Shown piece after piece: positions 21,363-53,607 of a stretch of 64,000 nt of DNA; within the stretch, counting starts at the first letter, position 1, and every line of letters begins with the position of its first letter. The stretch covers positions 5,930 to 69,929 of the forward strand of contig JBKJIA010000075.1 of NCBI GenBank assembly GCA_046598735.1, read 5' to 3'. The DNA comes from Polyangiales bacterium (lineage in GTDB: Bacteria; Myxococcota_A; Polyangia; Polyangiales; DASUME01). Below the pieces are notes generated by a model. That model searched no databases and was not told where the DNA came from. It saw nothing but the letters and a program-made list of their open reading frames with translations. The position numbers and the translations under genes are program-made.

Positions 21363-21377
21363 GCGCAGCGATTGCGC
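21363..21377. promoter_or_regulatory. palindrome GCGCA-GCGAT-TGCGC (candidate EBP binding site)
   Basis: Perfect 5+5 inverted arms, 42 bp upstream of the -24 element at 21419. A degenerate second copy (GCGCA-GAATC-CGCGA) lies at 21385..21399, 22 bp away centre to centre. Confidence 0.45.
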
Positions 21378-21418
21378 GTGATCCGCGCAGAATCCGCGAA
21401 TCCACCCGCATTACGAGG

Positions 21419-21434
21419 TGGCACCAAGTTTGCG
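21419..21434 (+). promoter_or_regulatory. candidate sigma-54 promoter ahead of the cco/cbb3 cluster
   Basis: TGGCAC-CAAGT-TTGCG, a full match to TGGCAC-N5-TTGC. Predicted TSS is at about 21445. Confidence 0.55.
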
Positions 21435-21449
21435 ATGGCGCCTGTCGAG

Positions 21450-22136
21450 ATGAATGGTCTGGTTGTCGCAGCGTTCTCCGGCGCAAGTCTCGCAGTCGTT
21501 AGCAGCGCACATTGCGCCGTGATGTGTGGGCCAGTGGTGATGGCTTCGAGCGCGCGCAGTGGCGGTGGTGGTTTACGCTACTTTAGCGGGCGCTTAGTCA
21601 CCTATACCCTCCTTGGTGCGCTCGCTGGCAGTAGTGGCCATCTGCTGACTTCCTTGGGGCCTACCAAGTGGATCGAAGCGGCTCTGTCATGGGCACTGGC
21701 CGTGGCGCTGCTCGCTTCTGCCGTGCGCTATCTGTCGCCAGCGCGTGTAGCCGCCCCGATCAAGCTTCACCGTAAGCCAAGAGTAAGCCTAGTCAGTCGA
21801 CTCTTGGCCGCCGTGGCGGATGATCCCCTGCTGCTCGGTGCGGCCACGGCGCTACTGCCCTGTGGCGTGCTGTTCACCGCGCTCGTAGCGGCCGCAGCCC
21901 TAAGATCTCCCGCGGCTGGCGCCATGGTCATGGCGACTTTTGCCAGTCTGTCTGGCCTTGCATTGATTGGTATGTCGAGCCTCGGACATCGGCTATCGCT
22001 CGGCGCGTCGGGACGTCGCGTGCTGGCCGTGGGTCTGCTTGCAGGCGCCGCGCTAATGATTTGGCGGCCCATCCCCATGTTGCGCAGCACGGGTAACGTG
22101 CCCGCCTGTCACGCGCACGTTGCAGAGGCGCATTAG
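21450..22136 (+). CDS. TauE/SafE- or DsbD_2-like membrane protein associated with cbb3 maturation clusters
   Basis: Polytopic membrane protein with the N-terminal SSAHCAVMCGP motif. ATG 21435 is an alternative start but lies upstream of the predicted TSS. Confidence 0.65.
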   Translation: MNGLVVAAFSGASLAVVSSAHCAVMCGPVVMASSARSGGGGLRYFSGRLVTYTLLGALAGSSGHLLTSLGPTKWIEAALSWALAVALLASAVRYLSPARVAAPIKLHRKPRVSLVSRLLAAVADDPLLLGAATALLPCGVLFTALVAAAALRSPAAGAMVMATFASLSGLALIGMSSLGHRLSLGASGRRVLAVGLLAGAALMIWRPIPMLRSTGNVPACHAHVAEAH

Positions 22137-22138
22137 TC

Positions 22139-24532
22139 ATGCAGCTTGCCAGCAACATCGCGACGCCACGCGCGCATGCCAGCGCGCTCGATGCCTTGTG
22201 CACACACTGCCGCCAACCCTTACCTCGCGGCGCGCGCTCGACGTTCTGTTGCGAAGGCTGCGAGCGTGTGCATGAGCTGCTAACTCGTTCCGGCCTCGAT
22301 CGTTACTACAGCCTGCGCGGCGAACAGCGTCTCGCGCCGGTCGGCGAGCAAGTCCACGGCCAACACACCTGGCTCGATGCGCTGGAGGCAGACACGGCGG
22401 GGCAGCCCGTGCGTCGGGTTTCCTTCGACGTGCAGGGCATCCAATGCGGTGCCTGCGCTTGGCTTATCGAAGCGCTGTTTCGCCGCGCCACGGATGGCTA
22501 TCGCATCGAGGTCAACCCCGCGCTCGGGCGCATTCTGTGCAGCGTCGGACCTGCGTTTTCGCTGCACGCGTTCGTCGCAAGCCTGGAGGAGCTCGGCTAC
22601 CGGCTGGGCCCTGCGACGAAAGCCATCTCCAGTCAGTCGGAGGGCCTGGTCCTGCGCACGGGGATCTGTCTCGCGCTCGCTGCCAACACGGTCTTACTCA
22701 GCGCGACCACTTACTTCGGTCTGGCCGAGGGTCCGATCTTCGAGCTCGTTCAAAACATAAGCTTTGCGCTCGCCACTCTGAGCGCACTCGTCGGTGGCAG
22801 TTACTTCGTCGATCGCGCCTATCAGGGCCTGCGTCGCGGCGTGTTGCACCTGGACCTTCCCATCGCCGTAGGCATGGGTCTCGCTTATGCGGGCTCGGCC
22901 TGGTCGGTATACTTCGGCGGCGGTCACGCGAGTTACCTCGACACAGTGAGTGTGTTCATCGCACTGATGTTGGTAGGCCGGCTGCTGCAGGAACGTCTGG
23001 TTGAAAAAAACCGCCGTCAGCTGCTCGCAAGCGACGGCTCGAGCGGTCTACTGGCACGCCGCGTGCGCGACGGACGTACCGAGCTTGTGCCTTGTCCCAC
23101 CTTACTATTGGGCGACGAGCTCCTGGTCTGCCCGGGCGAGATCGTACCGGTCCGCGCACGGCTCGAAGATAACCATGCGGAATGTTCCCTGGACTGGATC
23201 AACGGCGAAAGTGAACCGCGGACATTCGTGCACCGCCAAGAGCTCCCCGCAGGCGCAATCAATGTCGGCAAGAGTGCACTCTCGATCACGGCCCTTGCCA
23301 GTTTCGAACGCTCAGACCTGGATGTGCTGCTGCGCGACGACGCGAGTCACAAAGCACGCTCAACCGGCGACTTCTGGGACCTGCTCTCACGCATCTACGT
23401 GGTGCTGGTGCTGGTGGCCACGGCCGTAGGTGCCGCGATCTGGCTGCTGCGCGGAGCCCCGATTCTGCAGGTGCTCGACGTGTGCACCGCCGTGTTGGTG
23501 GTAACCTGTCCGTGCGCCTTTGGGATCGCCACTCCTCTCGCGTACGAGCTAGCTGTCAGCGGATTGCGCAACGCGGGATTGTTTGTAAGGGATGGCAGCT
23601 TCTTCGATCGCGCAGCGAGCATCAAGCGCATCGTTTTCGACAAGACCGGCACGCTCACCACCGGCAGCCTGGTACTGCGCACGCCCGAGCAGCTATCCAC
23701 CCTGGATTTCGCGAGCCGCCAGGCGCTTTATGATCTTAGTGCACGCAGTAACCATCCCAAGAGCATGGCTGTCGCCAATGCACTGCGCGAGCTCGATGAT
23801 CACGTGCGCCTAAGTCAAACGCTCGTCACGGAAATGCCTGGCCGAGGCCTAGAGCTCTCGCGCGCCGGCGTCACCTATCGCTTCGGCGAGCCGCGCTGGG
23901 CAACGGGCTCTGCTGCCACCTCCGTGTCTTGTGGTCCCGTTCTGACTCGGGATGGCGTAACGGTGGCCGTCTTGGAGAGTGCGGAAGTGTCCCGTCCAGA
24001 TGCCGTCGAAGAAGCACACGCCTTAGTCGCAGACGGTTACACACTCTGGATCGCCAGCGGAGACGAACAGTCCCGCGTTGATCTGATGGCAAACACCCTT
24101 GGAATTCAGGCCGACCAAGCGATCGGTAACCTGAGCCCAGAAGCCAAGTGTTCCCTTATCGCCGACCTGGATCGCAACGACACCCTGATGATCGGCGACG
24201 GCATCAACGATGGTCCTGCGCTGTCTAGGGCGCGTTGCTCTGGAACGCCTGCCGTGGATCGCCCATTCGTCCCGGCGCGCGCAGACTTCTACTTCTTGAC
24301 GCCGGGCCTGGCACCTGTGCGCGTGGCCCTGCGTGCCGCACGTGCGGTGCGAAAGGTCGTGCGCCACGCGCTCGCCTTTGCCACCTTATATAATGTCTTT
24401 GCGGTCGCGCTCTGTTACGCAGGGCTGATGCGACCCTGGCTGGCTGCTGTGTTGATGCCAGCCAGCTCGCTCTTGGTGCTTGGCTACACCGCCTTTGCAT
24501 TGTCGCCGCGGAGACCGCTGTGGAGGTCGTAG
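22139..24532 (+). CDS. ccoI: copper-translocating P1B-type ATPase, CcoI/FixI-like
   Basis: N-terminal Cys-rich metal-binding region, HMA-like GIQCGACA, CPC motif (TCPCAFG), DKTGTLT and GDGINDGPAL. Located beside ccoS/ccoNO. Confidence 0.85.
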   Translation: MQLASNIATPRAHASALDALCTHCRQPLPRGARSTFCCEGCERVHELLTRSGLDRYYSLRGEQRLAPVGEQVHGQHTWLDALEADTAGQPVRRVSFDVQGIQCGACAWLIEALFRRATDGYRIEVNPALGRILCSVGPAFSLHAFVASLEELGYRLGPATKAISSQSEGLVLRTGICLALAANTVLLSATTYFGLAEGPIFELVQNISFALATLSALVGGSYFVDRAYQGLRRGVLHLDLPIAVGMGLAYAGSAWSVYFGGGHASYLDTVSVFIALMLVGRLLQERLVEKNRRQLLASDGSSGLLARRVRDGRTELVPCPTLLLGDELLVCPGEIVPVRARLEDNHAECSLDWINGESEPRTFVHRQELPAGAINVGKSALSITALASFERSDLDVLLRDDASHKARSTGDFWDLLSRIYVVLVLVATAVGAAIWLLRGAPILQVLDVCTAVLVVTCPCAFGIATPLAYELAVSGLRNAGLFVRDGSFFDRAASIKRIVFDKTGTLTTGSLVLRTPEQLSTLDFASRQALYDLSARSNHPKSMAVANALRELDDHVRLSQTLVTEMPGRGLELSRAGVTYRFGEPRWATGSAATSVSCGPVLTRDGVTVAVLESAEVSRPDAVEEAHALVADGYTLWIASGDEQSRVDLMANTLGIQADQAIGNLSPEAKCSLIADLDRNDTLMIGDGINDGPALSRARCSGTPAVDRPFVPARADFYFLTPGLAPVRVALRAARAVRKVVRHALAFATLYNVFAVALCYAGLMRPWLAAVLMPASSLLVLGYTAFALSPRRPLWRS

Positions 24533-24732
24533 CACTCTTACTGTTCATCGGTGCGGTCTGGGTGCTCTTCGCACTCGGCCTGTTCGCCTGGAGCTTGCTG
24601 CAGAAGAATCACGAGCACGCGGACCGCCTCGCGCTGCTTCCCCTTGAAGACAATTGGCACGATCGCGCCGCGGGAGCATTAGACGCGCTGCCCGGGCACG
24701 ACACGAAAGAGAGAAAGGCCCCAGTCCCATGA
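24520..24732 (+). CDS. ccoS: cbb3 oxidase maturation protein CcoS/FixS
   Basis: 70 aa with a single TM helix followed by an acidic tail. GTG start. ATGA overlap with ccoNO. Confidence 0.7.
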   Translation: MEVVALLLFIGAVWVLFALGLFAWSLLQKNHEHADRLALLPLEDNWHDRAAGALDALPGHDTKERKAPVP

Positions 24733-27098
24733 CGTCCGCATCCCTGGGCGCGCAGTCCACCGACCTGAGTGTCGGACCGCGCACCGTCACCTTCCGCTAC
24801 GACGACCGCATCGTAAACCAGTTCATCTGGGCATCGGTGGTCTTTGGGCTCGTTGGGCTCCTGGTGGGCCTGCTGATCGCGCTGCAGCTGGCCTTCTGGC
24901 AGGCCAACATGGGACCTTATCTAAGCTTTGGGCGGCTGCGTCCATTGCATACCAATGCAGTCATCTTTGCCTTCGTCGGCAATATGATCTTCGCGGGCGT
25001 TTACTACAGCACGCAACGTCTGCTCAAGACACGCATGGCCTCTGACGTACTGAGTCGCATTCACTTCTGGGGCTGGCAAGCGATCATCGTCGCGGCGGCC
25101 ATCACCCTTCCACTTGGCTTCACCCAGGCCAAGGAGTACGCGGAGCTCGAGTGGCCTATCGATCTCGCGATCGCAGTCATCTGGGTCATCTTCGCCATCA
25201 ACTTCTTTTGGACTTTGGCCCAGCGCCGCGAAAAGCAGCTGTATGTGGCGCTTTGGTTCTATATCGCCACGCTGATCGCCGTCACGGTCCTACACGTGAT
25301 CAACAGCCTCGCCATCCCCGTGTTCGCGTTCAAGAGTTACAGCGTGTTTGGAGGCGTGCAAGACGCCCTCGTGCAGTGGTGGTACGGGCACAACGCCGTC
25401 GCGTTCTTCCTCACCACCCCCGTGCTTGGCATCATGTACTACTTCTTGCCCAAGGCGGCAGATCGACCGGTCTTCTCCTATCGGCTTTCGATCATCCACT
25501 TCTGGGCGCTGGTATTCATGTACATCTGGGCGGGTCCTCACCATCTCTTGTACACGGCCCTGCCGGATTGGGCCCAGAGCCTCGGCATGGTCTTCAGTAT
25601 CATGTTGTGGGCCCCGAGCTGGGGTGGCATGTTGAACGGCCTACTTACCTTGCGGGGCGCCTGGCATAAGCTGCGCACGGATCCAGTGCTCAAATTCTTT
25701 GCAGCGGGTGTCACGTTCTACGGCATGGCCACCTTCGAAGGCCCCTTACTAAGCATCAAGTCGGTGAACGGCTTGGCGCACTATACCGATTGGATCGTGG
25801 GCCACGTACACGCAGGTGCCCTGGGCTGGAACGGCTTCATGGCCGCCGGCATGTTCTATTTTCTATTGCCGCGTCTCTATCGCACCACGCTGTATTCACG
25901 AGCCGCCGCGGACTTTCACTTCTACATCGGCACCGTCGGTATCCTGCTCTACGTTATCTCGATGTGGGTAAGTGGCATCACCCAGGGCCTCATGTGGCGC
26001 GCGGTCAACGAGGGCGGCGGGCTCATGTACCCGAACTTCGTAGAGACACTGCTCGCGATCAAGCCGATGTACTGGATGCGCCTGACTGGCGGATCGTTCT
26101 ACCTGATAGGCTTTCTGATCATGATCTGGAACCTGGTCATGACCGCACGCAGCGGCTCCCTGGCGGATGAAGAAGTCAGCACGATCGAGCTGCGCGATCC
26201 GACCCCGAAAACACCGTGGCAGGACATCGCCTTTGGCAAACCGGTCATCATCTCGGTCGTCATCTCCCTGCTATTTGCGCTATTTCCTTTCGTCGAACCC
26301 ATCGCCAACGTGGCGCTGATGGGTATGGTCGTGGGCATTGGTTTACTTGCATCTCTATCCCTGACTGAAAAGCGTCGCGACCGCCCCACTTGGCATGCGG
26401 TGCTGGAAGGACGCGCCGTATGGTTCACTTCCTTTACGGTCGTGGCAGTGCTCGCAGGCGGCGTCTCTGAGCTTATCCCCATCATCATCACGGGCCACCA
26501 GACCTTGGTGAGCACCAAGAACGTTCCCTACCGCGCCCTTGAGCTCGAAGGGCGCGACGTGTACGTGAAAGAGGGTTGCTACAACTGCCATTCTCAGATG
26601 ATTCGGCCGTTCAAATGGGAGACCGCGCGCTACGGCGAAGTTTCCACGGCCGACGAATCCATCTTTGATCACCCTTTCCAGTGGGGATCCAAGCGTACGG
26701 GACCGGACCTTGCACGCGTGGGCACCAAGTACAGCCCTGCCTGGCATTACCGTCATATGATCGACCCGCGCGAGATCTCGCCCGGCTCCAACATGCCGAG
26801 CTACGCGCACTTGGCCCACACTAAGATCGATTTTGGCACCTCGACCGACAAGCTGCGCGCGATGCGCTCGATAGGTGTTCCCTACTCCGCAGGACAGGTG
26901 GCCAATGCAAGCGCAGACGCGCGGCTGCTTGCCCAGCAAATCACGCAGGAGCTCGCCCAAAGTGGCGAAACGAACGTGGCGCCAGACAGCGAGCTCGTGG
27001 CCCTGATCAGCTTCTTGCAGCGCCTGGGTAAGCCCGGCCTTGCACCCCCGAGCGGCGTCGAAGCACCGCTCAAAGTCAGCCTGCGCGGAGGTGAGTGA
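24729..27098 (+). CDS. ccoNO: cbb3-type cytochrome c oxidase, fused subunits I and II (CcoN-CcoO)
   Basis: 12+ TM heme-copper oxidase core with His ligands. The C-terminal part carries the CcoO heme motif CYNCHSQMIRPF. Start is ATG 24729 in ORF 24654..27098. Confidence 0.9.
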   Translation: MTSASLGAQSTDLSVGPRTVTFRYDDRIVNQFIWASVVFGLVGLLVGLLIALQLAFWQANMGPYLSFGRLRPLHTNAVIFAFVGNMIFAGVYYSTQRLLKTRMASDVLSRIHFWGWQAIIVAAAITLPLGFTQAKEYAELEWPIDLAIAVIWVIFAINFFWTLAQRREKQLYVALWFYIATLIAVTVLHVINSLAIPVFAFKSYSVFGGVQDALVQWWYGHNAVAFFLTTPVLGIMYYFLPKAADRPVFSYRLSIIHFWALVFMYIWAGPHHLLYTALPDWAQSLGMVFSIMLWAPSWGGMLNGLLTLRGAWHKLRTDPVLKFFAAGVTFYGMATFEGPLLSIKSVNGLAHYTDWIVGHVHAGALGWNGFMAAGMFYFLLPRLYRTTLYSRAAADFHFYIGTVGILLYVISMWVSGITQGLMWRAVNEGGGLMYPNFVETLLAIKPMYWMRLTGGSFYLIGFLIMIWNLVMTARSGSLADEEVSTIELRDPTPKTPWQDIAFGKPVIISVVISLLFALFPFVEPIANVALMGMVVGIGLLASLSLTEKRRDRPTWHAVLEGRAVWFTSFTVVAVLAGGVSELIPIIITGHQTLVSTKNVPYRALELEGRDVYVKEGCYNCHSQMIRPFKWETARYGEVSTADESIFDHPFQWGSKRTGPDLARVGTKYSPAWHYRHMIDPREISPGSNMPSYAHLAHTKIDFGTSTDKLRAMRSIGVPYSAGQVANASADARLLAQQITQELAQSGETNVAPDSELVALISFLQRLGKPGLAPPSGVEAPLKVSLRGGE

Positions 27099-27301
27099 TG
27101 TTGAGTCTGGTCGCTTTGGATTTCTTTCAGAAGAGTCCCATGCTGGTCTTCCCGTTGTTGGCGTTGGCGCTCTTCATGTTGGTCTTCTTCGTGGTCACGG
27201 TTCGCACGGTACTGACCCAGAAGTCCCGATATGAGGCGGTCGCGCGCCTTCCGCTCGAAAACCAAAGCTCAGCCTCGCATCAGGAGGTGGTTCGTGAGTA
27301 A
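27095..27301 (+). CDS. ccoQ: small membrane subunit, CcoQ-like
   Basis: 68 aa with one TM helix, positioned between ccoNO and ccoP. Confidence 0.5.
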   Translation: MMLSLVALDFFQKSPMLVFPLLALALFMLVFFVVTVRTVLTQKSRYEAVARLPLENQSSASHQEVVRE

Positions 27302-27884
27302 GCCAGAGCGTATCGTCGACGCCATTCAGGGCGAGATCATCCACGTCTACGACGGCATTCAAGAGGCAGACAACCGTCTACCCGTGTGGTGGTTGTGGAC
27401 ATTCTTCGGCGCCATCCTCTTCTCCATAGGATACTGGTTCTGGTACGAGGAATTCGAAGCTGCTCCCGGCCTCACCCAGGCCTACTTCATCGAGCGCGAA
27501 AGCGAGCAAGAGAAGCAGGGTAAGGATCCCACCGATGCCCAACTGATGGCTCAGCTCGGCACACCGGCGGTAAGCGCTGGCGCGCAGCTCTTCGCGACGA
27601 ACTGCGTGGTGTGTCACGAGACCAAGGGGCAAGGTAAGATCGGTCCCAACCTGACTGATCCGCTCTGGATCCATGGCGGTGAGCCACTCGCGATATACAA
27701 AACGGTTCGAGATGGTGTGCCTGCCAAGGGCATGCCCTCGTGGGGTCCACTTCTGGGTCGCGCGAGCGCGCTCCAGCTCACGGCGTTCGTCCTATCCATT
27801 CGCGATAGCAATGTGCCAGGTAAGGCGCCGGAGGGTGAGCCCATGACCGCTGGTATCGCTCCGTCACCCTCGGCTTCGCCATGA
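27294..27884 (+). CDS. ccoP: cbb3-type cytochrome c oxidase subunit III (CcoP), monoheme form
   Basis: FixP N-terminal motif DGIQEADNRLPVWW, a TM helix and a single CVVCH heme site. GTG 27294 is preceded by AGGAGG. Confidence 0.8.
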   Translation: MSKPERIVDAIQGEIIHVYDGIQEADNRLPVWWLWTFFGAILFSIGYWFWYEEFEAAPGLTQAYFIERESEQEKQGKDPTDAQLMAQLGTPAVSAGAQLFATNCVVCHETKGQGKIGPNLTDPLWIHGGEPLAIYKTVRDGVPAKGMPSWGPLLGRASALQLTAFVLSIRDSNVPGKAPEGEPMTAGIAPSPSASP

Positions 27885-29260
27885 GCGCGCAGCCCCGCAC
27901 GCGCCGCTCGTTGCCTATTCTCGATCAAACGAGCGCGCTGCGGCCCGATGGCGGACGCAACTTCGTCGTGCCCGCCGACGTCTCAGGTAGGTTCACGCTC
28001 TTGCGTCAAATCGTGTTCGTGCTCTTAATTGTGGTGTACGTGGCGTTGCCTTGGCTTCAAATCAAAGGACATCCCGCGGTCTTCCTTGATATTCAGCACC
28101 GCGCGTTCTACCTATTCGGCGCCACGTTCAACGCGCAGGACGTGTGGATGGCGTTCTTCCTATTGAGTGGCATCGGCTTCTTACTGATCCTGATGACGGC
28201 GCTGTGGGGCCGTATTTGGTGCGGTTATGCGTGCCCGCAGACCGTGTTCCTGGAAGGGGTATACCGCCGCGTGGAGCGCTGGATTGAGGGCCCCCGCAAT
28301 CGACACATGCTCCGCGATCGCAGTCCCCTGAGCTTCGATCGGGTCTGGCGCAAGCTACTCAAACACAGCCTGTTCATCGTGCTGTCGTTCTTGGTTGCGC
28401 ACGTGTTCCTTAGCTACTTTGTCTCTATCCCGGCGCTGTTCGACATGATGACGCAGCGCCCGAGGGAACATCCGGAAGCCTTTGCTTGGGCCTTTGGCGT
28501 GACCTCAGTCATGTACTTCAATTACGCGTGGTTTCGTGAACAGTTGTGTGTCGTGATCTGCCCATACGGTCGACTGCAATCGGTGCTCACCGATGCGGAC
28601 ACCTTACTTATCGGCTACGACACGCAGCGCGGAGAGCCACGCGGTAAGCTTACAGAGAAGGACAAAGGCGATTGCATCGATTGCGGTCGCTGCGTGGCCG
28701 TGTGTCCGACCGGCATCGACATTCGCAACGGTCTGCAGCTCGACTGCATCGGCTGCACGGCCTGTGTGGATGCCTGCGACGAGGTGATGGAAAAGATTGA
28801 TCGCCCGAAGGGACTCGTGCGCTACGACTCGCTCAACGGTCTGGCACGCAAGCCTGGGCGCTTCTTGCGACCCCGCGTATACCTGTATACCTTTTTGGGC
28901 GCGCTCGGCCTGGTGGTTGCAGGTTTCTCGCTGCAACGTCACGTGTCATTCGAAGCGAACCTGCTGCGTCTGCAGGGTGCCCCCTACCTGCTCGAAGGTG
29001 CACGCGTGCGCAATGCCCTCGAGCTGCACGTGGTGAACAAGCGTGGCGAGCCCACCACCTTCAAGCTTGCACCCGTGCCCGGTCAGGACCTCGAATACGT
29101 GATCGCTAGGCCCACTCTTACTCTTTCGTCATTCGCGGCGGAGCGCGTGCCGGTATTCGTGCTTGGCCCCAACGACGGCCGTCCACGCAAGGTGCGCATT
29201 CGCATCGACGATGGCCAGGACCCGCGCGTGGTCGAAGGCGCCTTTGTGGCCCCCCACTGA
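27881..29260 (+). CDS. ccoG: cytochrome c oxidase accessory protein CcoG/FixG (4Fe-4S, polytopic)
   Basis: TM helices, CIDCGRCVAVCP and CIGCTACVDAC ferredoxin motifs. ATGA overlap with ccoP. Confidence 0.85.
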   Translation: MSAQPRTRRSLPILDQTSALRPDGGRNFVVPADVSGRFTLLRQIVFVLLIVVYVALPWLQIKGHPAVFLDIQHRAFYLFGATFNAQDVWMAFFLLSGIGFLLILMTALWGRIWCGYACPQTVFLEGVYRRVERWIEGPRNRHMLRDRSPLSFDRVWRKLLKHSLFIVLSFLVAHVFLSYFVSIPALFDMMTQRPREHPEAFAWAFGVTSVMYFNYAWFREQLCVVICPYGRLQSVLTDADTLLIGYDTQRGEPRGKLTEKDKGDCIDCGRCVAVCPTGIDIRNGLQLDCIGCTACVDACDEVMEKIDRPKGLVRYDSLNGLARKPGRFLRPRVYLYTFLGALGLVVAGFSLQRHVSFEANLLRLQGAPYLLEGARVRNALELHVVNKRGEPTTFKLAPVPGQDLEYVIARPTLTLSSFAAERVPVFVLGPNDGRPRKVRIRIDDGQDPRVVEGAFVAPH

Positions 29261-32662: not shown

Positions 32663-32678
32663 TGCAAAGCCGATGCCG
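32663..32678 (-). promoter_or_regulatory. candidate sigma-54 promoter for RCCR-like/ACAD/monooxygenase operon
   Basis: Minus strand reads CGGCAT-CGGCT-TTGCA with correct spacing. Predicted TSS is about 46 nt upstream of ATG 32606. Confidence 0.5.
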
Positions 32679-44413: not shown

Positions 44414-45135
44414 GCGGCGTCTCCGCGCAGCGTGGCGAGAGCATTCACCAGGGCATCAGGAGCAAAAGGCTTCACCATTAGTTGCGCGCGCGTACCGAGC
44501 TCGGCAATCAATGGTGTGTCGTGCTCATCCACATCGAAGCCCGTCACCAAGATGACTGACAGATTGGAAGTGCGGGCAAGCTCCGCCGCGAAGTCCGCAC
44601 CATCGCCGTCGGGGAGTCGGATGTCGATGATCGCAGCCACTAAGGCTTTTCCGAGCACGCGGCGCGCGCTTGCCAATGAATGGGCGCAGTGCACGCGATA
44701 CCCGCTTTCGGTCAGCGCTTCGGACAAGGCCGCGCTGAGCTCCAGATCATCGTCCACGAACAGCACGTCGCGATTGTCGCCACCTTCCTGTTCGAGTGCC
44801 TGCAGAAGCTCAGGTAAGGGTACTGGCTTCATCAGCACCCTGCGCACACCGGCCGCTAGTGCAGAGGCGATGCGATCGTCTTCCGTATAGGCCGTCATCA
44901 GAATGAAAAGCGTGTGCGGATGGGTCTCACGCAGGCGCCGATGCAGACCGACTCCGTCGAGCCCCGGCATGCGTACGTCGAGCAAGGCCACGTCGAATTT
45001 CTTGTCTTCGGATTCGGCCAGCGCACGCGCGGGGTCATCGAACACGCATACCTCGTAGCCCTCAAGCTCGAGTATTTCGCCCAAGTCCTCGGCCAAGGCT
45101 CGGTTGTCATCCACGATCAAGGCTCGCCGCGCCAT
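44410..45135 (-). CDS. response regulator with two tandem receiver domains (REC-REC, no output domain)
   Basis: Two CheY-like modules (ALIVDDNRAL...LLDVRMPGLDG and VLFVDDDLEL...IIDIRLPDGDG). Confidence 0.85.
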   Translation of the reverse strand: MARRALIVDDNRALAEDLGEILELEGYEVCVFDDPARALAESEDKKFDVALLDVRMPGLDGVGLHRRLRETHPHTLFILMTAYTEDDRIASALAAGVRRVLMKPVPLPELLQALEQEGGDNRDVLFVDDDLELSAALSEALTESGYRVHCAHSLASARRVLGKALVAAIIDIRLPDGDGADFAAELARTSNLSVILVTGFDVDEHDTPLIAELGTRAQLMVKPFAPDALVNALATLRGDAA

Positions 45136-46383: not shown

Positions 46384-46399
46384 TGCAACCTGCGGGCCA
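46384..46399 (-). promoter_or_regulatory. candidate sigma-54 promoter for globin-kinase operon
   Basis: Minus strand reads TGGCCC-GCAGG-TTGCA, one mismatch. Predicted TSS is about 32 nt upstream of ATG 46341, which has a GAAGG RBS. Confidence 0.55.
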
Positions 46400-48149: not shown

Positions 48150-49460
48150 TCACGTGAACACGTAGTGCCGGTGGAGCGCTGCTGCCATCAGCTCGCCGCG
48201 AAAGCTTGGATGGGCAAGCGCGGCCAGGGCGTACACGCGCTCGCGAACACTCTTGCCCCATAAGTCTGCGATTCCGTACTCGGTCACCACATAGCGAACA
48301 TCGCCCCGTGTGGTCACTACCGCGGAACCTTCTTCGAGCGCCGCTTGAATGCGACTAACGCTGCCGCCCTTGGCCGTGGAGGGTAGCGCGATGATCGCCT
48401 TACCACCCTTGCTGCGCGACGCGCCCCGCACGAAGTCCACTTGCCCGCCGATGCCCGAGAAAAAATGACCCAGCAGCGTGTCAGACACCACTTGTCCTGT
48501 CAGGTCCACGGCCAGGGCCGAGTTGATCGCGATCATCTGGCTGTTGCGTGCGATCACGAAAGGGTCGTTGGTAAAGTCAGAAGCGCGGAGCTCGATCGCG
48601 GGATGATCGTCTACCCATGAATAGAGCGCCTGACTACCCATCACGAACGAAGTCACCATCTTATGGGGTAATAATGTCTTCTGCTTGCCGTTCACTACAC
48701 CCGCTTCAGCCAGGCGCATGACACCGTCCGATAGCATCTCAGTATGAATACCGAGGTCATGATGTTGTGCGAGCGCAGCCAAGACCGCGTCTGGTATTTG
48801 TCCTATACCCGTCTGCAAGGTGGCGCCGTTCGGCACAAGACTCGCAACATGCGCACCAATCGCGCGCTCCACGTCGCTCGGTTCGTCGCAGTTCGCGATC
48901 AAGAGCGGGCGTTCGATCGGGATCAACCAATCGATATCCGCCACGGCCAAGAAAGAATCGCCATGCGTACGCGGCATGTGAGGGTTCACTTCCGCGATCA
49001 CCAGCTGCGCCGTGTCCACCGCGGCGCGCACCACATCGACCGAGACACCCAGACTGACGAAGCCGTGTACATCGGGCGGACTGACCTGAATCAACGCGAC
49101 GTCGATGCCGACTCGCCCGCTGCGAATGAGCTCTGGGATCTCGGACAGGAACACGGGCATGAAGTCCGCGCGGCCTAGGTGCACGGCCTCCCGTACGTTC
49201 GCGCCGATGAAGAACGCGCGATGTCGGAAGCGCGCGGCAAATTCAGGTCGCACGTAAGGTGCGGGACCGAGCGTGAGCAGGTGAACGATCTCGTTGTCAT
49301 GCAGGTGGTCGCCTTGCTCTACGAGCGCGTTGACGAGGCTTAGCGGTTCCGCGGCGCCGGAGCCGATCATGATGCGCTGTCCCGCGCGCACGGATAGCAG
49401 CGCCTCGCCGGGCGTGGTCACCTTGGATCGATAGGTCTGCTGCCAATCTGAGTCTTTCAC
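48150..49460 (-). CDS. acetyl-CoA hydrolase/transferase family protein (4-hydroxybutyrate CoA-transferase-like)
   Basis: 436 aa. Family pattern includes GIGQIPDAV, SGIGGQVDF and TEYGIADL. Confidence 0.8.
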   Translation of the reverse strand: MKDSDWQQTYRSKVTTPGEALLSVRAGQRIMIGSGAAEPLSLVNALVEQGDHLHDNEIVHLLTLGPAPYVRPEFAARFRHRAFFIGANVREAVHLGRADFMPVFLSEIPELIRSGRVGIDVALIQVSPPDVHGFVSLGVSVDVVRAAVDTAQLVIAEVNPHMPRTHGDSFLAVADIDWLIPIERPLLIANCDEPSDVERAIGAHVASLVPNGATLQTGIGQIPDAVLAALAQHHDLGIHTEMLSDGVMRLAEAGVVNGKQKTLLPHKMVTSFVMGSQALYSWVDDHPAIELRASDFTNDPFVIARNSQMIAINSALAVDLTGQVVSDTLLGHFFSGIGGQVDFVRGASRSKGGKAIIALPSTAKGGSVSRIQAALEEGSAVVTTRGDVRYVVTEYGIADLWGKSVRERVYALAALAHPSFRGELMAAALHRHYVFT

Positions 49461-49576: not shown

Positions 49577-49591
49577 GCGCAAATCCTGCGC
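49577..49591. promoter_or_regulatory. palindrome GCGCA-AATCC-TGCGC (candidate EBP site)
   Basis: Perfect arms. Followed by GCGCA-AATCA-TGCCA at 49607..49621 and a GCGCAAAC half-site at 49628. Lies in the divergent region between the CoA-transferase and triple-USP genes. Confidence 0.45.
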
Positions 49592-49701
49592 CCAAAGCCG
49601 CGCACCGCGCAAATCATGCCAATATCTGCGCAAACACGAACATTGCGGGGCGACACCTGGCTTGCGCTTTCCGGTCGCACCAGCGTGTCTATCTCCAAGA
49701 G

Positions 49702-51030
49702 ATGGTCATCGTTTACGGTACCGATCTATCCACCCAGTCGCATCTCGTGGCCAGCGCTGCCGCCGCGCTCGCCGTGCGCCTTGCAGCCACAGAGCTTTTC
49801 CTGGTGCATGTGCTTGAGAACAATCTCATCAGTCGCTTAGATGGTCCGCAGCTCGAGCTGCTAAAAGCTCAAACGCTTGAGCGCCTGACGCAAGACGCCA
49901 CGCAGCTCGCCACAACCTTCAAGCTTGCGCGCGTCGAGCCGGTTTTGCTGATGGGAGCGCCGGCGGAGCTTCTGCCTCGTTTTGCCCACTCGAAGCAAGC
50001 GGCCCTGCTAGTCATGGCTTCGCAAGGGCATGGTGCAACGCCTCTCTACCGGATAGGAGGCACGTCCGAACGCGTCGCCCTCAGCTCGGAGGTACCGGTG
50101 CTCGTGGTGCGCGATGAGGCGCCATTTCGAGCGTGGGCGAGCGGCGAACGGCCCCTGCGTATCTTAGTAGGGCTCGACTTCACGACGAGTAGTGACGCCG
50201 CTGTGCACTTGGCCAAGACCCTCAGACGGGCGGGCACCTGCGACCTTACGTTCGCACATATCCACTATGGATACGATGCCGCACGCCGGTACGGTATTGC
50301 GCCCCTGGCCAGCGCTTCGCTCGTCGACGCAGACCGTCAGACGGACGACTTGCTCAGGCGTGATCTTGCAGTTCGTGTCGGCGAGCTACCCGGTGAGGGC
50401 GCGGTCACCTTCCTACCGCGTACCGGCTTTGGTCGGCTTGGGGATCACCTGCTGGAAATCGCAGAGGCCGAACGCGCCGACCTTATCCTAGTTGGTACCC
50501 ATCGGCGTAGTGGAGCGCGCAGGCTCGCCTCTGTCTCGAGCGTGGTGTTGCACTTTGGCCATGCTGCGATCGCCTGCGCGCCGCCAGAAATGAGCGCGCC
50601 GCCGGAAGGGCGCGCCGTCCGTCATGTCCTTATACCCACCGATCTCTCGCCCTTTGCCAACTACGCAATCGCTCAAGGCTACCGAATGCTCGCCGAAGGT
50701 GGTGGCGAGGTACACCTCATCCATGTGCTAGATCCCATTTCGGCCGACGCTCGCTCTCCGATTGCTCGAGCAGAGCTAGTCCACCAGTTGCGCGCCCTAG
50801 TACCCGATTGGGCGGCGAAACACAGCATCGTCACGCGAACAGACGTGGTAGTTCGGGGTGATATCGCGGACGCCGTCCATGAAACGGCGGCTCGCATGGC
50901 CGCAGATATGATCTGCATGGCTTCGCACGGCCGTTCAGGCATACGGCGTGCGGTCTTAGGTTCCATCGCGGAGCAGGTGATCCGTGGTAGTCACATCTCC
51001 GTATTGGTGGTGCGTCCGCCCTCGCCATAA
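49702..51030 (+). CDS. triple universal-stress-protein-domain protein
   Basis: Three successive USP modules, each ending in a G-x2-G-x9-G(S/T)-like ATP motif (ASQGHGATPLYRIGGTSERV, GTHRRSGARRLASVSSVV, ASHGRSGIRRAVLGSIAEQV). Start is ATG 49702. Confidence 0.8.
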   Translation: MVIVYGTDLSTQSHLVASAAAALAVRLAATELFLVHVLENNLISRLDGPQLELLKAQTLERLTQDATQLATTFKLARVEPVLLMGAPAELLPRFAHSKQAALLVMASQGHGATPLYRIGGTSERVALSSEVPVLVVRDEAPFRAWASGERPLRILVGLDFTTSSDAAVHLAKTLRRAGTCDLTFAHIHYGYDAARRYGIAPLASASLVDADRQTDDLLRRDLAVRVGELPGEGAVTFLPRTGFGRLGDHLLEIAEAERADLILVGTHRRSGARRLASVSSVVLHFGHAAIACAPPEMSAPPEGRAVRHVLIPTDLSPFANYAIAQGYRMLAEGGGEVHLIHVLDPISADARSPIARAELVHQLRALVPDWAAKHSIVTRTDVVVRGDIADAVHETAARMAADMICMASHGRSGIRRAVLGSIAEQVIRGSHISVLVVRPPSP

Positions 51031-51176
51031 GAGCGAGGGAGCGCGACTAAGGGGTCGCGCCTACGAGGAACCATCGGGGTCGCTCAGTGGTGGTCTGGAA
51101 GTAGACGAGTCCCTCATGTTACTCGCTTGGCATGCTTGTTGAGTGTGCGAGGAGCATCGTCGATGCGAGGATAAGT

Positions 51177-52607
51177 ATGGAAAGACTCAGCGGACTGGAT
51201 GCGACTTTTCTCTACGTGGAGACGCCGACCATGCACATGCAGGTCTCGTTGCTCGCACTCCTGGATCCTAGGGAAGCGCCTGGAGGCTACGACCATACCC
51301 GACTCGAAGCCTTGCTCGAACAGCTGGCCTACCAAACCCCTAAGCTACGCCGCAAGCTCGTGCAGGTACCGTTGGGACTCCACCACCCGGTTTGGGTCGA
51401 GGATCCTCACTTTCATCCAGTCCACCATCTCAAGCGGATCGCCTGTCCGCTGCCAGGTGGAACGAAGGAGCTTGCAGATCTGTGCGGTCGCATCAACAGC
51501 ACTCCACTCGATCGTTCACGCCCCTTGTGGGAAATCTGGGTGATCGAGGGCCTCGCACAGGGCCAGTTCGCTCTGCTCGCGAAACTTCACCATTGCCTTG
51601 CGGATGGTATGGCCGGAGCTGGGCTGCTCGCGAGTTTGTTCAGCATGACGAAGGAACCGGCCAAGAGCGCACCCGTGGCATCAACACTGACTGCGCACGA
51701 CGGGATGCCCAGCACGCCCAAGCTCATGCGCGACGCGCTGCTCGATCGTTTGACAGCCTCGCGCCAAATCGGCCGCATCTATGGGCGTACGGCCAAGGCC
51801 CTCGATCTGATTCGAAGCAGACGAAGCGACAGCGAATACCATGCCGGCGCCACTCCCATCTTGGATGTTCCACGCACCCCCTTCAACGCTCCGATCACTG
51901 CCCAACGTTCTGCCGCTTTTGCGCGCGTTTCTCTGGAGGAGGTGCGCGAGATCTGTAAGGTATACTCCGTGAAGGTCAACGACGTGGTGCTCGCACTGTG
52001 CGCCGGTGCGCTGCGTCGCTATCTCGAGCCCAAAGGCGACCTCCCCCTCGCTCCGCTTGTCGCAGCCTGCCCCGTCGCAGTACCCAGGAGCGACATTCAC
52101 GCGCACGGTAGTAACCATGTAGCCGTGATGTTTACCTCCTTGGCCACCAACCTGGAGGACCCTGTGGAAAGGCTCCTCGCCATCCGCAGCACGGCAAGTG
52201 GTGCCAAGGAAGAGCTCCGCACCTTCGGGAACGAGACGATGGGCGACTGGGCCGAGCTTTCATCGCCGGTCCTCTTTACGGCCAGTACCCGGGTCTACTC
52301 TAAGTATCGGCTATCGAGCCTGCACCGTCCGCTCCATAACGTCATGATCTCGAACGTGCCTGGCCCGCCCATGCCCATCTATCTCGATGGGTCGAAGCTT
52401 ACCGCCGCCTACCCCATGGGCCCTGTGATCGAGGGTGCAGGGCTCAACATCACCGTCATGAGCTATGTAGGGCACCTCGACTTTGGGTTTCTTGCCGCTA
52501 CCGCACTGGTGCCGGACCTTTGGCGGCTTGCGGATGCGATCGCACCGAGCTTGGCGGAGCTGCTCGATAGGTCCCGTGCGCGCGTCGAGGTCGACGTCAG
52601 CGTGTGA
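51177..52607 (+). CDS. wax ester synthase / diacylglycerol acyltransferase (WS/DGAT)
   Basis: Catalytic HHCLADG (HHxxxDG), an N-terminal LSGLDATFLY-type motif, and 476 aa from ATG 51177. Confidence 0.85.
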   Translation: MERLSGLDATFLYVETPTMHMQVSLLALLDPREAPGGYDHTRLEALLEQLAYQTPKLRRKLVQVPLGLHHPVWVEDPHFHPVHHLKRIACPLPGGTKELADLCGRINSTPLDRSRPLWEIWVIEGLAQGQFALLAKLHHCLADGMAGAGLLASLFSMTKEPAKSAPVASTLTAHDGMPSTPKLMRDALLDRLTASRQIGRIYGRTAKALDLIRSRRSDSEYHAGATPILDVPRTPFNAPITAQRSAAFARVSLEEVREICKVYSVKVNDVVLALCAGALRRYLEPKGDLPLAPLVAACPVAVPRSDIHAHGSNHVAVMFTSLATNLEDPVERLLAIRSTASGAKEELRTFGNETMGDWAELSSPVLFTASTRVYSKYRLSSLHRPLHNVMISNVPGPPMPIYLDGSKLTAAYPMGPVIEGAGLNITVMSYVGHLDFGFLAATALVPDLWRLADAIAPSLAELLDRSRARVEVDVSV

Positions 52608-52663
52608 GCACGTGGATCCAAACGCGCACTCGCAAGTCTAGCGCCTGAATTCCAAGAGTAAGG

Positions 52664-53536
52664 TCAGCCGGCTTCGGCGTCTTGCGCTATCAGGTCGTCG
52701 CACAGCAAACTTGGGTGCAGCAGCATTTGCTCCTCGATGTCCATGTCTTGGCGGAAAGTCGTGATCAGGTGCGCGAGCGCTGCTGCCATGGCCGCAGGTG
52801 GCTCCGACGGCTCGTCGAACTGGGCCACGATCCGTTCGAGCGATCGCCTTTGCTCAACGTGCTCGGCGATCAGACGATCAGAGCGCACCTTCCCGAACGC
52901 GTCCAGCGCTGCAAGCGCGGGCGCGAGCAGGCGATTTTCGAGCTCCATGTGGCGACACAGACCCGTGTAGAGTTGGTAAGCGATGCCTCGCAATGACAGG
53001 ACCTCCTGATCGCCAAAGCCACCGCCCGAAAGGATGCGCTGCGCGTGTTCTTCGGAACGAAGAAGCAAGGCTCGGATATTGACGTGCTCGCTCAAAATCA
53101 CACTGCGGACCTGGCTGGGTGTCATTTGCAATGATTCGGGCTGATCCGCCTCGATCAGCTCGGCCAGGACCCTGATCGCGTCGTTCTTCGTGAAGAGGCC
53201 GACGAGACGCTTGCCTTGCATCACAACCGCGCAGTCGGCCTTGTGAGCGGCCATGGCACGCGCCGCCCGTGCCACGGGTGTGTCCTCGGTCAAGGTAAGC
53301 GGTTCGGATGTCAATACCTCCTCGATGGTAACCTCTGCCAAGTCCAAGTCGAGAGCGCCCACCAACGTGAGGTCGTGCTCCGACAGCACTCCGCTCAACA
53401 CCCCTTCCCGGACCACGGGCAGGTAGCAGATCCCGAGCTCACGCATACGGTGGGAAGCAGCTTCCAGGGTCTGCTCGATGGGGATCGAGTGAGGGGCGAA
53501 CGTCATGTAGTCTCGCACTTGGTATTGGAGCGGCAT
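52664..53536 (-). CDS. CBS-pair protein fused to a hemerythrin-like (HHE cation-binding) domain
   Basis: N-terminal CBS pair. The C-terminal about 140 aa carries spaced H/E/D motifs (SEHVNIR, CRHMELEN, AEHVEQR, DMDIEEQMLLH). AGGAGG RBS. Confidence 0.6.
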   Translation of the reverse strand: MPLQYQVRDYMTFAPHSIPIEQTLEAASHRMRELGICYLPVVREGVLSGVLSEHDLTLVGALDLDLAEVTIEEVLTSEPLTLTEDTPVARAARAMAAHKADCAVVMQGKRLVGLFTKNDAIRVLAELIEADQPESLQMTPSQVRSVILSEHVNIRALLLRSEEHAQRILSGGGFGDQEVLSLRGIAYQLYTGLCRHMELENRLLAPALAALDAFGKVRSDRLIAEHVEQRRSLERIVAQFDEPSEPPAAMAAALAHLITTFRQDMDIEEQMLLHPSLLCDDLIAQDAEAG

Positions 53537-53591
53537 AGGTTCCTCCTAACGTGACAAGACGACATGACAAACGGGTACCATGACCTTAATG

Positions 53592-53607
53592 AGCACGCGC
53601 CGTGCCA
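53592..53607 (-). promoter_or_regulatory. candidate sigma-54 promoter for CBS-hemerythrin gene
   Basis: Minus strand reads TGGCAC-GGCGC-GTGCT with correct spacing. Predicted TSS is about 45 nt upstream of ATG 53536. Confidence 0.55.

Follow-up and report, generated by a model that had tools for sequence, protein, structure and literature searches.

Introduction

In Myxococcus xanthus, oxygen limitation is relayed to sigma-54 promoters by the NmpRSTU proteins (Bretl et al., 2018, PMC6211767; McAllister et al., 2025, PMC11841059). A homologous relay probably governs the gene island considered here, which covers ~32 kb (positions 21363-53607) of a 64-kb stretch of DNA from an uncultured myxobacterium of the Polyangiales; this whole stretch of 64,000 nucleotides is referred to as the window. 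NmpU is a protoglobin kinase and a homologue of AfGcHK whose haem must carry O2 for activity, NmpT is a REC-REC protein and proposed phosphate sink, NmpS is a REC-kinase hybrid, and NmpR is an NtrC-type enhancer-binding protein (EBP) (Bretl et al., 2018). NmpU phosphorylates the receiver of NmpS and thereby turns NmpS off, and when O2 is limiting NmpS phosphorylates NmpR (Bretl et al., 2018). NmpR recognizes GCGCA-N5-TGCGC, usually present as two copies 14-15 bp apart, and activates sigma-54 promoters (McAllister et al., 2025). Its targets are an operon of a CBS protein and nmpR, nmpUTS, a gene for a universal stress protein (USP), a P-type ATPase with a cbb3 oxidase, and an operon of hemN with a hemerythrin gene. 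In hypoxia, reporter activity for the CBS-protein operon (mxan_4236) increases 6.5-fold in an NmpR-dependent manner, and the regulon is sigma-54-dependent (McAllister et al., 2025). The related sensor AfGcHK of Anaeromyxobacter sp. Fw109-5 (PDB 5OHE) shows activity in the Fe(II)-O2 and Fe(III) states and none in the deoxy Fe(II) state. According to the authors of the M. xanthus work, Anaeromyxobacter lacks the nmpR-operon genes found in M. xanthus.

The original prediction had listed the contents of the island and compared them with the dormancy regulon of Mycobacterium tuberculosis. Profile scans with Pfam and NCBIfam of the open reading frames (ORFs) between 20.9 and 56.4 kb of the window recover all of the listed genes at the coordinates given: a cbb3 oxidase with its maturation genes, five USP genes with seven USP domains, three CBS-pair proteins of which one is fused to a hemerythrin domain, a globin-coupled sensor kinase operon (Protoglobin-HisKA-HATPase, REC-REC and REC-PAS-HisKA-HATPase), a WS/DGAT acyltransferase and a CoA-transferase. 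A sigma factor and two NtrC-type EBPs are also present as listed, but the sigma factor belongs to the sigma-70 family and the EBPs are 80% identical paralogues and not near-identical copies. For comparison, 83 globin-kinase loci (labelled L001 and so on), 80 of them fetched from species-representative genomes, were searched with every island protein. Together, the data support a coherent low-oxygen module of an uncultured Polyangiales bacterium. We consider it likely that the island is an NmpRSTU-type oxygen-limitation regulon, in which the regulators and most of their targets are clustered within ~32 kb. The domain architectures, the conservation of catalytic residues and of genes across genomes, the order of the genes and the combination of site pairs with -24/-12 elements are shown in silico, and we infer the direction of phosphotransfer, hypoxic induction and EBP binding from the experiments on M. 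xanthus and AfGcHK.

A Globin-Kinase Relay Homologous to NmpRSTU

The regulatory genes of the island were assigned from their Pfam domains as follows.

45139-46341, minus strand: globin-coupled kinase (NmpU-like), Protoglobin-HisKA-HATPase_c
44410-45135, minus strand: REC-REC protein (NmpT-like) with two Response_reg domains, 3 nt after the kinase gene
42839-44413, minus strand: hybrid kinase (NmpS-like), REC-PAS_4-HisKA-HATPase_c, 4-nt overlap with the nmpT-like gene
34937-36397, minus strand: EBP1, a paralogue of NmpR, with REC, sigma-54 AAA+ and HTH_8 domains and an SAFTGA loop
46605-48071, plus strand: EBP2, NmpR-type, with REC, sigma-54 AAA+ and HTH_8 domains, divergent from the globin-kinase operon

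Identity to the M. xanthus proteins amounts to 42% for NmpU, 35% for NmpT, 39-45% for the REC and kinase parts of NmpS, and 55% for NmpR with both EBP1 and EBP2, compared with 38% between these EBPs and another EBP of the M. xanthus nmp locus. The GSFTGA loop of EBP2 is that of M. xanthus NmpR, and the recognition helix of its helix-turn-helix (HTH) motif is near-identical. In the globin kinase, Y57, H111 and H194 correspond to Tyr45, His99 and His183 of AfGcHK and are invariant in 14 homologues, and its globin domain aligns with the AfGcHK structure (PDB 5OHE) over residues 18-171 (E 3e-25). All receivers retain the Asp, Thr and Lys residues, and both domains of the REC-REC protein carry the acceptor Asp. 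Moreover, the alpha1 specificity segment of the first NmpT-like receiver resembles that of the NmpS-like receiver and differs from those of the EBPs, a pattern that is likewise found in M. xanthus. Since domain architecture, gene order, sequence identities, haem and phosphorylation residues and the EBP loop all agree, the control hardware is, as judged from its sequence, a homologue of M. xanthus NmpRSTU.

The prediction that the wiring relies on EBPs, sigma-54-type promoters and a haem-globin kinase instead of DosS/DosT-DosR is borne out, as the island contains no GAF-haem kinase or LuxR-type regulator and its promoters contain no FNR box. In the Pfam scans, neither a GAF domain nor a LuxR/GerE-type HTH was found in any island protein.

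The number of relay genes varies within the lineage. A single Polyangiales metagenome-assembled genome (MAG), represented by loci L004 (3151-5740) and L009 (3268-6180), encodes two divergent EBP/globin-kinase pairs that are 94%/93% and 83%/87% identical to those of the window, which has one globin kinase and two EBPs. Evidently, duplication and reshuffling of the sensor module took place recently in the lineage.

Further sigma-54-type and hybrid kinase genes lie upstream of the island. A third NtrC-type EBP (17616-18977, minus strand) is 41-42% identical to EBP1 and EBP2 and 44% identical to M. xanthus NmpR. It pairs with a HAMP-HisKA-HATPase kinase (18964-20085, minus strand) directly upstream of the island, and the two (17616-20085) are probably a sigma-54 two-component system of their own. 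On the minus strand, 8316-9425 and 9492-10568 encode hybrid kinases in tandem (REC-HisKA-HATPase) that are receiver-first like M. xanthus NmpS, and a REC-HisKA-HATPase-REC kinase (11000-12598, plus strand) is divergent from them. The intergenic region common to these three kinases contains a one-mismatch NmpR-like site at 10623 (GCGCAATCATCGCGC).

Proposed Signal Flow and Its Sign

By analogy with M. xanthus, the NmpU-like globin kinase would autophosphorylate when its haem is bound to O2. It would pass phosphate to the first receiver of the NmpT-like REC-REC protein, which would act as a sink, and to the N-terminal receiver of the NmpS-like hybrid kinase, which would thus be held off. When O2 falls, the NmpU-like kinase would become silent and the NmpS-like kinase active, and EBP1 and EBP2 would be phosphorylated. 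The EBPs would then bind the paired GCGCA-N5-TGCGC sites and open sigma-54 promoters. Predicted targets are the cbb3 operon, the USP and CBS genes, the CBS-hemerythrin gene, the CoA-transferase gene, the genes of the regulators themselves and that of an RpoH-like sigma factor, which may in turn drive a second tier of genes.

The sign of this response could in principle be reversed, such that the presence of O2 (exposure or oxidative stress in a micro-aerophile) switches the module on, the globin kinase being active in its O2-bound form. The biochemistry of AfGcHK, active as Fe(II)-O2 or Fe(III) and inactive as deoxy Fe(II), is compatible with this, and the extra PAS domain of the hybrid kinase leaves room for an inverting step that need not be identical to that of M. 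xanthus. However, phosphorylation by NmpU turns NmpS off in M. xanthus, where the 6.5-fold rise of the reporter in hypoxia depends on NmpR, and the window has the same architecture of receiver and histidine kinase, the receiver Asp and the pattern of specificity segments. A high-affinity cbb3 oxidase and hemerythrin content also fit scarcity of O2. We therefore consider the opposite sign unlikely and retain induction by oxygen limitation.

Paired NmpR Sites and Sigma-54 Promoters

If the island is an NmpR-type regulon, its promoters should carry NmpR sites. Following the published promoters, two sites were counted as a pair when one had at most one mismatch, the other had one perfect half-site, and 13-17 bp lay between them. 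The window holds seven such pairs compared with 0.62 expected and a maximum of four in 60 simulations, i.e., a ~10-fold enrichment. Five of the seven are located at island promoters, with gaps of 14-16 bp and each 42-110 bp from a -24/-12 element. Perfect matches to GCGCA-N5-TGCGC occur three times in the 64 kb (21363, 36460, and 49577; ~0.8 expected), all in island control regions, which make up ~3% of the window by our own arithmetic. NmpR-type sites bracket the island coordinates of the original prediction almost exactly. The sites and elements are the following.

21334-21377: NmpR-type enhancer pair before the cbb3 operon, S1 GCGCAGATCCTTCGC and S2 GCGCAGCGATTGCGC (perfect match), gap 14 bp
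21419-21434, plus strand: sigma-54 -24/-12 element TGGCACCAAGTTTGCG, which follows S2 at 42 bp and lies shortly before ATG 21450
32663-32901: divergent region between USP1 and an operon headed by a gene for a protein like red-chlorophyll-catabolite reductase (RCCR), with the pair 32732-32746 and 32762-32776, gap 15 bp
32663-32678, minus strand: -24/-12 element CGGCATCGGCTTTGCA on the RCCR operon side
32886-32901, plus strand: -24/-12 element TGGCGCGGCTCCTGCA on the USP1 side
36415-36587: divergent region between EBP1 and the sigma gene, with the pair 36460-36474 GCGCAAATGGTGCGC (perfect match) and 36490-36504, gap 15 bp
36415-36430, minus strand: -24/-12 element on the EBP1 side
36572-36587, plus strand: -24/-12 element TGGCACAGCCGCTGCA on the sigma-gene side
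39472-39486 GCGCAAAGCCTGCGA and 39503-39517: pair at the promoter of the Rieske oxygenase gene, gap 16 bp
39592-39607, plus strand: -24/-12 element TGGCACAACGCCTGCA before the Rieske gene
41583-41598, minus strand: -24/-12 element before CBS2
41626-41641, plus strand: -24/-12 element before the genes for a small protein and an ABC ATPase
46384-46399, minus strand: strong -24/-12 element TGGCCCGCAGGTTGCA before the globin kinase, conserved in L009, L004, and L007
49498-49513, minus strand: -24/-12 element before the CoA-transferase gene
49577-49621: pair in the divergent region between the CoA-transferase and triple-USP genes, GCGCAAATCCTGCGC (perfect match) and GCGCAAATCATGCCA, gap 15 bp
53592-53607, minus strand: strong -24/-12 element TGGCACGGCGCGTGCT before the CBS-hemerythrin gene
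53638-53652 and 53681-53695: NmpR-like sites before the CBS-hemerythrin gene with one perfect half-site each

The M. xanthus orthologue of the cbb3 operon is NmpR-dependent, and the site-pair geometry before the operon in the window agrees with that of the published NmpR promoters (McAllister et al., 2025). The operon is also found next to the globin kinase in L001, L007, L022, L026, L029, and L052. It consists of the following genes, which apart from the two small ORFs were assigned from Pfam.

21450-29260, plus strand: cbb3 oxidase operon
21450-22136, plus strand: DsbD_2-family membrane protein
22139-24532, plus strand: CcoI-type P-type ATPase
24654-27098, plus strand: fused CcoN-CcoO
27231-27884, plus strand: CcoP
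27881-29260, plus strand: CcoG/FixG
Between the CcoI-type ATPase and CcoN-CcoO, plus strand: ccoS-like small ORF
Before CcoP, plus strand: ccoQ-like small ORF

Divergent from the cbb3 promoter region are genes for a PEBP-family protein (20209-20682, minus strand) and a KTSC-domain protein (20924-21220, minus strand, refined start); no -24/-12 element was seen on the strand of these two genes (20209-21220).

Several observations weigh against assigning the whole island to an NmpR-type regulon. The -24/-12 consensus has 50 matches in the window compared with 39 expected, a high background in DNA of 61% GC, and the background of our ad hoc -24/-12 score is high as well. The cbb3 promoter could be checked in three other loci only, as most fetched loci stop before the start of the operon. 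Despite their -24/-12 elements, CBS2 and the small-protein gene have no good NmpR sites in their common region, and no convincing -24/-12 element was found on the strand of the triple-USP and WS/DGAT genes. With respect to autoregulation, the EBP1 promoter region holds a pair with a perfect site, but the intergenic region of nmpU and EBP2 has a degenerate site pair only, located upstream of the kinase element and kept in L009; clear pairs occupy this position in L001, L002, and L007. Finally, the hybrid kinase has a PAS domain that is absent from M. xanthus NmpS and could add or alter its input, and orthology was judged by synteny and local best hits.

Because of the high -24/-12 background, we give weight to where an element lies with respect to genes, to its pairing with NmpR sites and to conservation across genomes. 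A comparison of -24/-12 scores between strands before USP, CBS, globin-kinase and EBP genes discriminates weakly, many of these genes being operon-internal or divergent.

Control by an FNR/Anr-type regulator was considered and rejected because no island promoter contains a box: none was found in the island promoter regions with TTGAT-N4-ATCAA and up to two mismatches. The Pfam scans revealed no CRP/FNR-family protein in the island. Window-wide, 23 FNR-box-like matches compare with 11.5 in shuffled sequences; each of them falls within a coding sequence, with several in cco genes and in the gene for the CoA-transferase, and the excess may be a codon or dipeptide effect. One further NmpR site pair lies outside the island (13892-13934, gap 13 bp) near the 5' end of an aldo/keto reductase ORF (12628-13971, minus strand). 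It may be situated in the true promoter region, since the Pfam domain of this ORF begins only at residue 137.

A Conserved Core with Lineage-Specific Additions

Homologues of the globin kinase number in the thousands, and those most similar to it come from uncultured Myxococcota; the nearest genome is the Polyangiales MAG of L009 with 94% identity. Companions of the globin kinase were counted over the 83 loci.

REC protein: 55 loci
EBP: 53 loci
Hybrid kinase: 49 loci
USP: 36 loci
CBS: 34 loci
cbb3 subunits: ~10 loci
Sigma factor: 9 loci
CoA-transferase: 5 loci

The WS/DGAT, the Rieske oxygenase and an MtrC-like cytochrome occur in none of the 83 loci. The same holds for the RCCR operon, for which one weak match of 24% identity resembling an acyl-CoA dehydrogenase (ACAD) was seen in L068.

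The resemblance extends to whole arrangements of genes. In L001, USP genes, the ABC ATPase, the small protein, the sigma factor, an EBP, the kinase operon and the cbb3 cluster are found together. L002 contains a CBS-USP-CoA-transferase-USP operon behind an NmpR-type pair, together with an EBP, the kinase operon, and CBS and USP genes. The closest relative shares with the window the MgtC gene, EBP2, the kinase operon, the ABC ATPase with the small protein, and CBS2. The accessory genes of this relative are different ones and encode a beta-CASP RNase, a cytochrome c', an alcohol dehydrogenase and a LOG-like protein; EBP2 is 93% identical to the L009 copy. NmpR-type sites recur as well: the related loci contain 77 site pairs, distributed over 47 of the 83 loci, compared with 7-15 in simulated sets (~7-fold enrichment). 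These pairs precede CBS (15), globin-kinase (14), USP (10), EBP (10), and sigma (7) genes.

Hence, the island consists of a conserved core plus lineage-specific additions, since neither the Rieske oxygenase nor the RCCR operon is a conserved neighbor and the accessory genes of the closest relative differ. Co-occurrence of the block in related genomes, a check proposed with the original prediction, thus holds for the core, which recurs among the 83 loci, but not for the WS/DGAT, the Rieske oxygenase and the RCCR operon.

This mosaic raises the question of whether the neighborhood is coincidental, i.e., an assembly of unrelated stress-annotated operons without common regulation. The lack of conserved linkage for the WS/DGAT, the Rieske oxygenase, the genes for the RCCR-like, ACAD-like and FAD-dependent enzymes and the multihaem cytochromes would be in line with coincidence, as would the different accessory genes of the closest relative and the frequency of -24/-12-like matches by chance. 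However, dozens of species have the core families next to their globin kinase, and the paired sites are enriched in the window as well as in related loci and lie in promoter regions that include those of the Rieske and RCCR units. Furthermore, all USP and CBS genes of the 64-kb window are inside the island, between 32.9 and 53.5 kb, and none is found elsewhere in it. That the clustering exceeds chance follows from the recurrence of these families beside the globin kinase in independent genomes of Myxococcota and from the common regulatory sites that bracket the region, and we regard mere coincidence as very unlikely.

Even less probable, to the point of being barely credible, is that the island was acquired horizontally. 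Accessory content does vary between close relatives, as might be expected of a genomic island, but GC content is uniform at 0.59-0.64 (61% for the window) without a break at the island edges, the window has no tRNA genes, integrase and transposase domains were not detected in the Pfam scans, and the core is vertically widespread in Myxococcota. A mobile element was rejected on the uniform GC content and the lack of tRNA genes.

In other Myxococcota, NmpR-type pairs were seen before genes for an S30AE ribosome hibernation factor, a DksA/TraR-type protein and a cytochrome c', none of which occurs in the window. The cytochrome c' and the beta-CASP RNase also recur beside the globin-kinase operon. 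The coordinates of these wider candidates are L051 734-1120; L057 15264-15698; L038 8019-8639; L001 148-678; and L009 10910-11398 and 1763-3172. The hibernation factor, the DksA-like protein and the cytochrome c' are candidate members of a wider regulon.

Stress-Protein, CBS and Associated Genes

Apart from the relay and the oxidase, the island contains USP and CBS genes together with several others. All assignments listed here are from Pfam, with NCBIfam in addition where indicated.

32937-33407, plus strand: USP1
33442-33867, plus strand: CBS1, a CBS-pair protein
33963-34403, plus strand: USP2
34503-34940, minus strand: USP3, 4-nt overlap with EBP1
37468-38085, plus strand: USP4
38159-39409, plus strand: MgtC/DUF4010 membrane protein (also NCBIfam)
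40817-41554, minus strand: CBS2, a CBS-pair protein, refined start ATG 41554 with an AGGAGG ribosome-binding site
41712-41981, plus strand: sll1863-like small protein of 89 aa (also NCBIfam)
41965-42825, plus strand: ABC-type ATPase
48150-49460, minus strand: CoA-transferase of the acetyl-CoA hydrolase/transferase family (also NCBIfam)
49702-51030, plus strand: triple-USP protein, ATG 49702 being the real start
52664-53536, minus strand: CBS-hemerythrin fusion

Several ORF calls that used the first possible start were too long, and the refined starts expose clean divergent control regions of 157-330 bp. CBS2 adjoins the hybrid kinase also in L002, L007, and L009, and the small protein and the ABC ATPase are also present in L001 and L009, on opposite strands. 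The CoA-transferase is butyryl-CoA:acetate-like, yet it scores under the equivalog cut-off in NCBIfam. Between CBS1 and USP2 (33884-33925), a perfect 10-bp inverted repeat, ATGCGAAGCA ... TGCTTCGCAT, is not a typical terminator because it lacks a T-run; the repeat may act as a regulatory palindrome or fold into a hairpin in the RNA. Known RNA elements were searched for in the window and rejected.

A Sigma Factor as a Candidate Target and a Possible Second Tier

The sigma factor of the island deserves separate consideration, as the original prediction had grouped it with the EBPs.

~36609-37421, plus strand: RpoH/RpoS-like sigma-70-family sigma factor with r2/r3/r4 regions (Pfam, NCBIfam)

As it carries sigma-70 regions 2-4, it was rejected as the partner of the EBPs, and rpoN is not encoded in the 64-kb window. 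Of the 10 copies of the sigma gene scored in related loci, every one reaches a -24/-12 score of 17.5 or more on the gene strand (18 or more in eight), compared with one of 10 that reaches 17 and none that reaches 18 on the opposite strand. The element is at a constant distance from the gene and represents the cleanest signal among the gene families compared; in seven loci, NmpR-type pairs precede the sigma gene. On the basis of these sequence features, the sigma factor appears to be a target of the sigma-54/EBP system and not a sigma-54 partner.

This finding allows the NmpRSTU-type reading to be extended, without conflict, to a two-tier stasis programme in which a duplicated NmpR and a sigma-54-dependent RpoH-like sigma factor would together have a DosR-like function. 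Such a programme would cover respiration and growth arrest, including storage lipid made by the WS/DGAT. We put this forward as a tentative extension.

51132-52607, plus strand: WS/DGAT acyltransferase, after the triple-USP gene

In favor of two tiers, an NmpR-type pair and a -24/-12 element precede the sigma gene of the window, and the same signals accompany its relatives (-24/-12 in 10 of 10 copies, pairs in seven loci). In addition, the unit of the triple-USP and WS/DGAT genes shares the CoA-transferase control region, which holds a perfect site pair, and in other genomes NmpR-type pairs precede the ribosome hibernation factor and the DksA-like protein. On the other hand, the cases of the hibernation factor and of DksA are single observations, and no sigma-70-family sigma factor is reported in the M. 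xanthus regulon (McAllister et al., 2025).

The lipid branch fares worse. The WS/DGAT scores 237 bits with the catalytic-domain profile PF03007, 110 bits with the C-terminal-domain profile PF06974 and 461 bits with TIGR02946 (cut-off 310), which indicates family membership only. It is found in none of the 83 neighborhoods, its strand has no -24/-12 element of good quality, and homologues elsewhere lack globin-kinase, USP and CBS genes. A metagenome search anchored on the WS/DGAT yielded 12 loci of distant homologues (at most 46% identity, close orthologues being unsampled) without globin kinase, USP or CBS genes beside the WS/DGAT; only the weakest locus gave an EBP-like match (2e-4, 30% over ~115 residues). 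The proposed parallel to the storage-lipid enzyme Tgs1 therefore finds no backing in the 83 loci or the promoter analysis. A storage-lipid or dormancy reading is unsupported, and the terms "dormancy" and "stasis" would apply by analogy only.

In its full form, the cascade would belong to Polyangia-type myxobacteria and combine respiration with USPs, CBS energy sensors, acyl metabolism via the CoA-transferase and WS/DGAT lipid, and in relatives the hibernation factor, DksA and cytochrome c'. This is conceivable, although we rather doubt it. If true, Gram-negative bacteria would have a counterpart to the dormancy regulon of mycobacteria that runs on unrelated hardware.

Accessory Genes and Neighbors

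Two lineage-specific accessory units lie behind NmpR-type pairs and -24/-12 elements, the RCCR/ACAD/FAD operon (29351-32606), headed by the RCCR-like gene, and the Rieske oxygenase gene.

31800-32606, minus strand: RCC-reductase-like protein (PF06405, E 4.5e-18; plant red-chlorophyll-catabolite reductase family)
30529-31830, minus strand: acyl-CoA-dehydrogenase-like flavoprotein (Pfam, NCBIfam)
29351-30529, minus strand: FAD monooxygenase (Pfam, NCBIfam)
39671-40813, plus strand: Rieske/VanA_C-type non-haem iron oxygenase (Pfam, NCBIfam)

The best NCBIfam match of the Rieske protein is SdmA, a sterol 4-beta-methyl monooxygenase, at 101 bits and far below the cut-off of 600 bits. An O2-requiring oxygenase is thus positioned behind a candidate hypoxia promoter.

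Downstream of the island, large multihaem c-type cytochromes with MtrC/MtrF-like and cytochrome c7/c3 domains are encoded (53861-63462, plus strand).

53861-56353, plus strand: multihaem cytochrome
56232-58436, plus strand: multihaem cytochrome
60761-61804, plus strand: multihaem cytochrome
61759-63462, plus strand: multihaem cytochrome

This cluster suggests an extracellular or periplasmic electron-transfer pathway. Its first gene shares the upstream region and the NmpR-like half-sites with the CBS-hemerythrin gene.

Comparison with Known Systems

The island resembles M. xanthus NmpRSTU in the four protein architectures, the order nmpU-nmpT-nmpS, the conserved residues, the enhancer site and the target families. 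In contrast to the M. xanthus regulon, which is scattered over at least seven promoters, most of that in the window is gathered in a single block of 32 kb. The window has duplicate NmpR genes (80% identity), the NmpS-like kinase has a PAS domain, and nmpR is divergent from nmpU, whereas M. xanthus nmpR is convergent with, and downstream of, nmpS. The window has seven USP domains compared with one reported USP gene, and the RpoH-like sigma factor, the CoA-transferase, the Rieske oxygenase and the RCCR/ACAD/FAD operon are its candidate extra targets. The pilR link of M. xanthus is not visible in the window. The original prediction took the island for a case of convergent assembly, but its wiring has already been characterized as M. 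xanthus NmpRSTU with the same target families. The island represents an expanded and clustered instance of a system that is already known. Features that may be new in comparison with M. xanthus are the clustering, the NmpR duplication, the PAS insertion, the additional USP domains and the candidate targets; in the literature searched, we found no publication on any of these extensions. The most notable candidate target is the putatively sigma-54-driven RpoH-like sigma factor, which is conserved in ~10 genomes.

So far, NmpRSTU has been studied in one organism, in which the targets are scattered and were found promoter by promoter. In the window and ~80 related loci, the relay and the USP, CBS and cbb3 targets form a conserved neighborhood across Myxococcota. 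The published NmpR site predicts targets outside Myxococcus, and members of the regulon can therefore be read from genome context. Testable nominees are the sigma-54-controlled RpoH-like sigma factor, the CoA-transferase, the cytochrome c', the hibernation factor and the duplicated NmpR.

AfGcHK shares with the window the globin domain, Tyr45 and His99, the H-box His and a REC-REC protein encoded immediately downstream. It is distant in sequence, and the work on AfGcHK defined the biochemistry of the sensor and not a regulon.

Among clustered low-oxygen loci, the lxa locus of Burkholderia cenocepacia comprises ~50 genes and is needed for anoxic survival (Sass et al., 2013, PMC3721108). Like the island, it is clustered in an aerobe and contains USPs (six), a cation-transporting ATPase, and electron-transfer, storage-polymer (PHA) and regulatory genes. 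Unlike the island, it has an Anr/Fnr-type motif (TGA-N6-TCA), lacks a globin kinase and an EBP, and is confined to one Burkholderia lineage, whereas the core of the window is widespread in Myxococcota. In the FixLJ-FixK and Anr/Fnr systems of Proteobacteria, a haem or Fe-S sensor of O2 likewise induces ccoNOQP and ccoGHIS when O2 is scarce. These sensors are PAS-haem or Fe-S proteins and not globins, and they act through a one-step two-component or a one-component regulator at sigma-70 promoters, without kinase-on-kinase inversion or an EBP.

The comparison with DosRST of M. tuberculosis holds for the target families, USP and CBS, but neither for the hardware nor for linkage of the WS/DGAT. 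In both systems, a haem-based O2 sensor kinase stands over a USP-rich set that includes a tandem-USP protein and a CBS-pair protein; the DosR set also includes the WS/DGAT Tgs1. DosS and DosT are GAF-haem kinases that are active in the deoxy form, whereas NmpU and AfGcHK are globin kinases that are active in the oxy form, with the signal inverted by a second kinase. DosR is a LuxR/NarL-type regulator at sigma-70 promoters and NmpR an NtrC-type EBP at sigma-54 promoters. Moreover, a respiratory oxidase is a central target in the window, and membership of the WS/DGAT in its regulon is unsupported. The two fields have been linked before, as the NmpR hypoxia assay was taken from the rapid-dormancy model of M. 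tuberculosis and the authors likened the USPs to those of the M. tuberculosis dormancy regulon (McAllister et al., 2025). With regard to how aerobic soil bacteria withstand changing O2 levels, and with this comparison already in the literature, the island represents a second, independent USP-rich hypoxia module with a haem sensor besides DosR.

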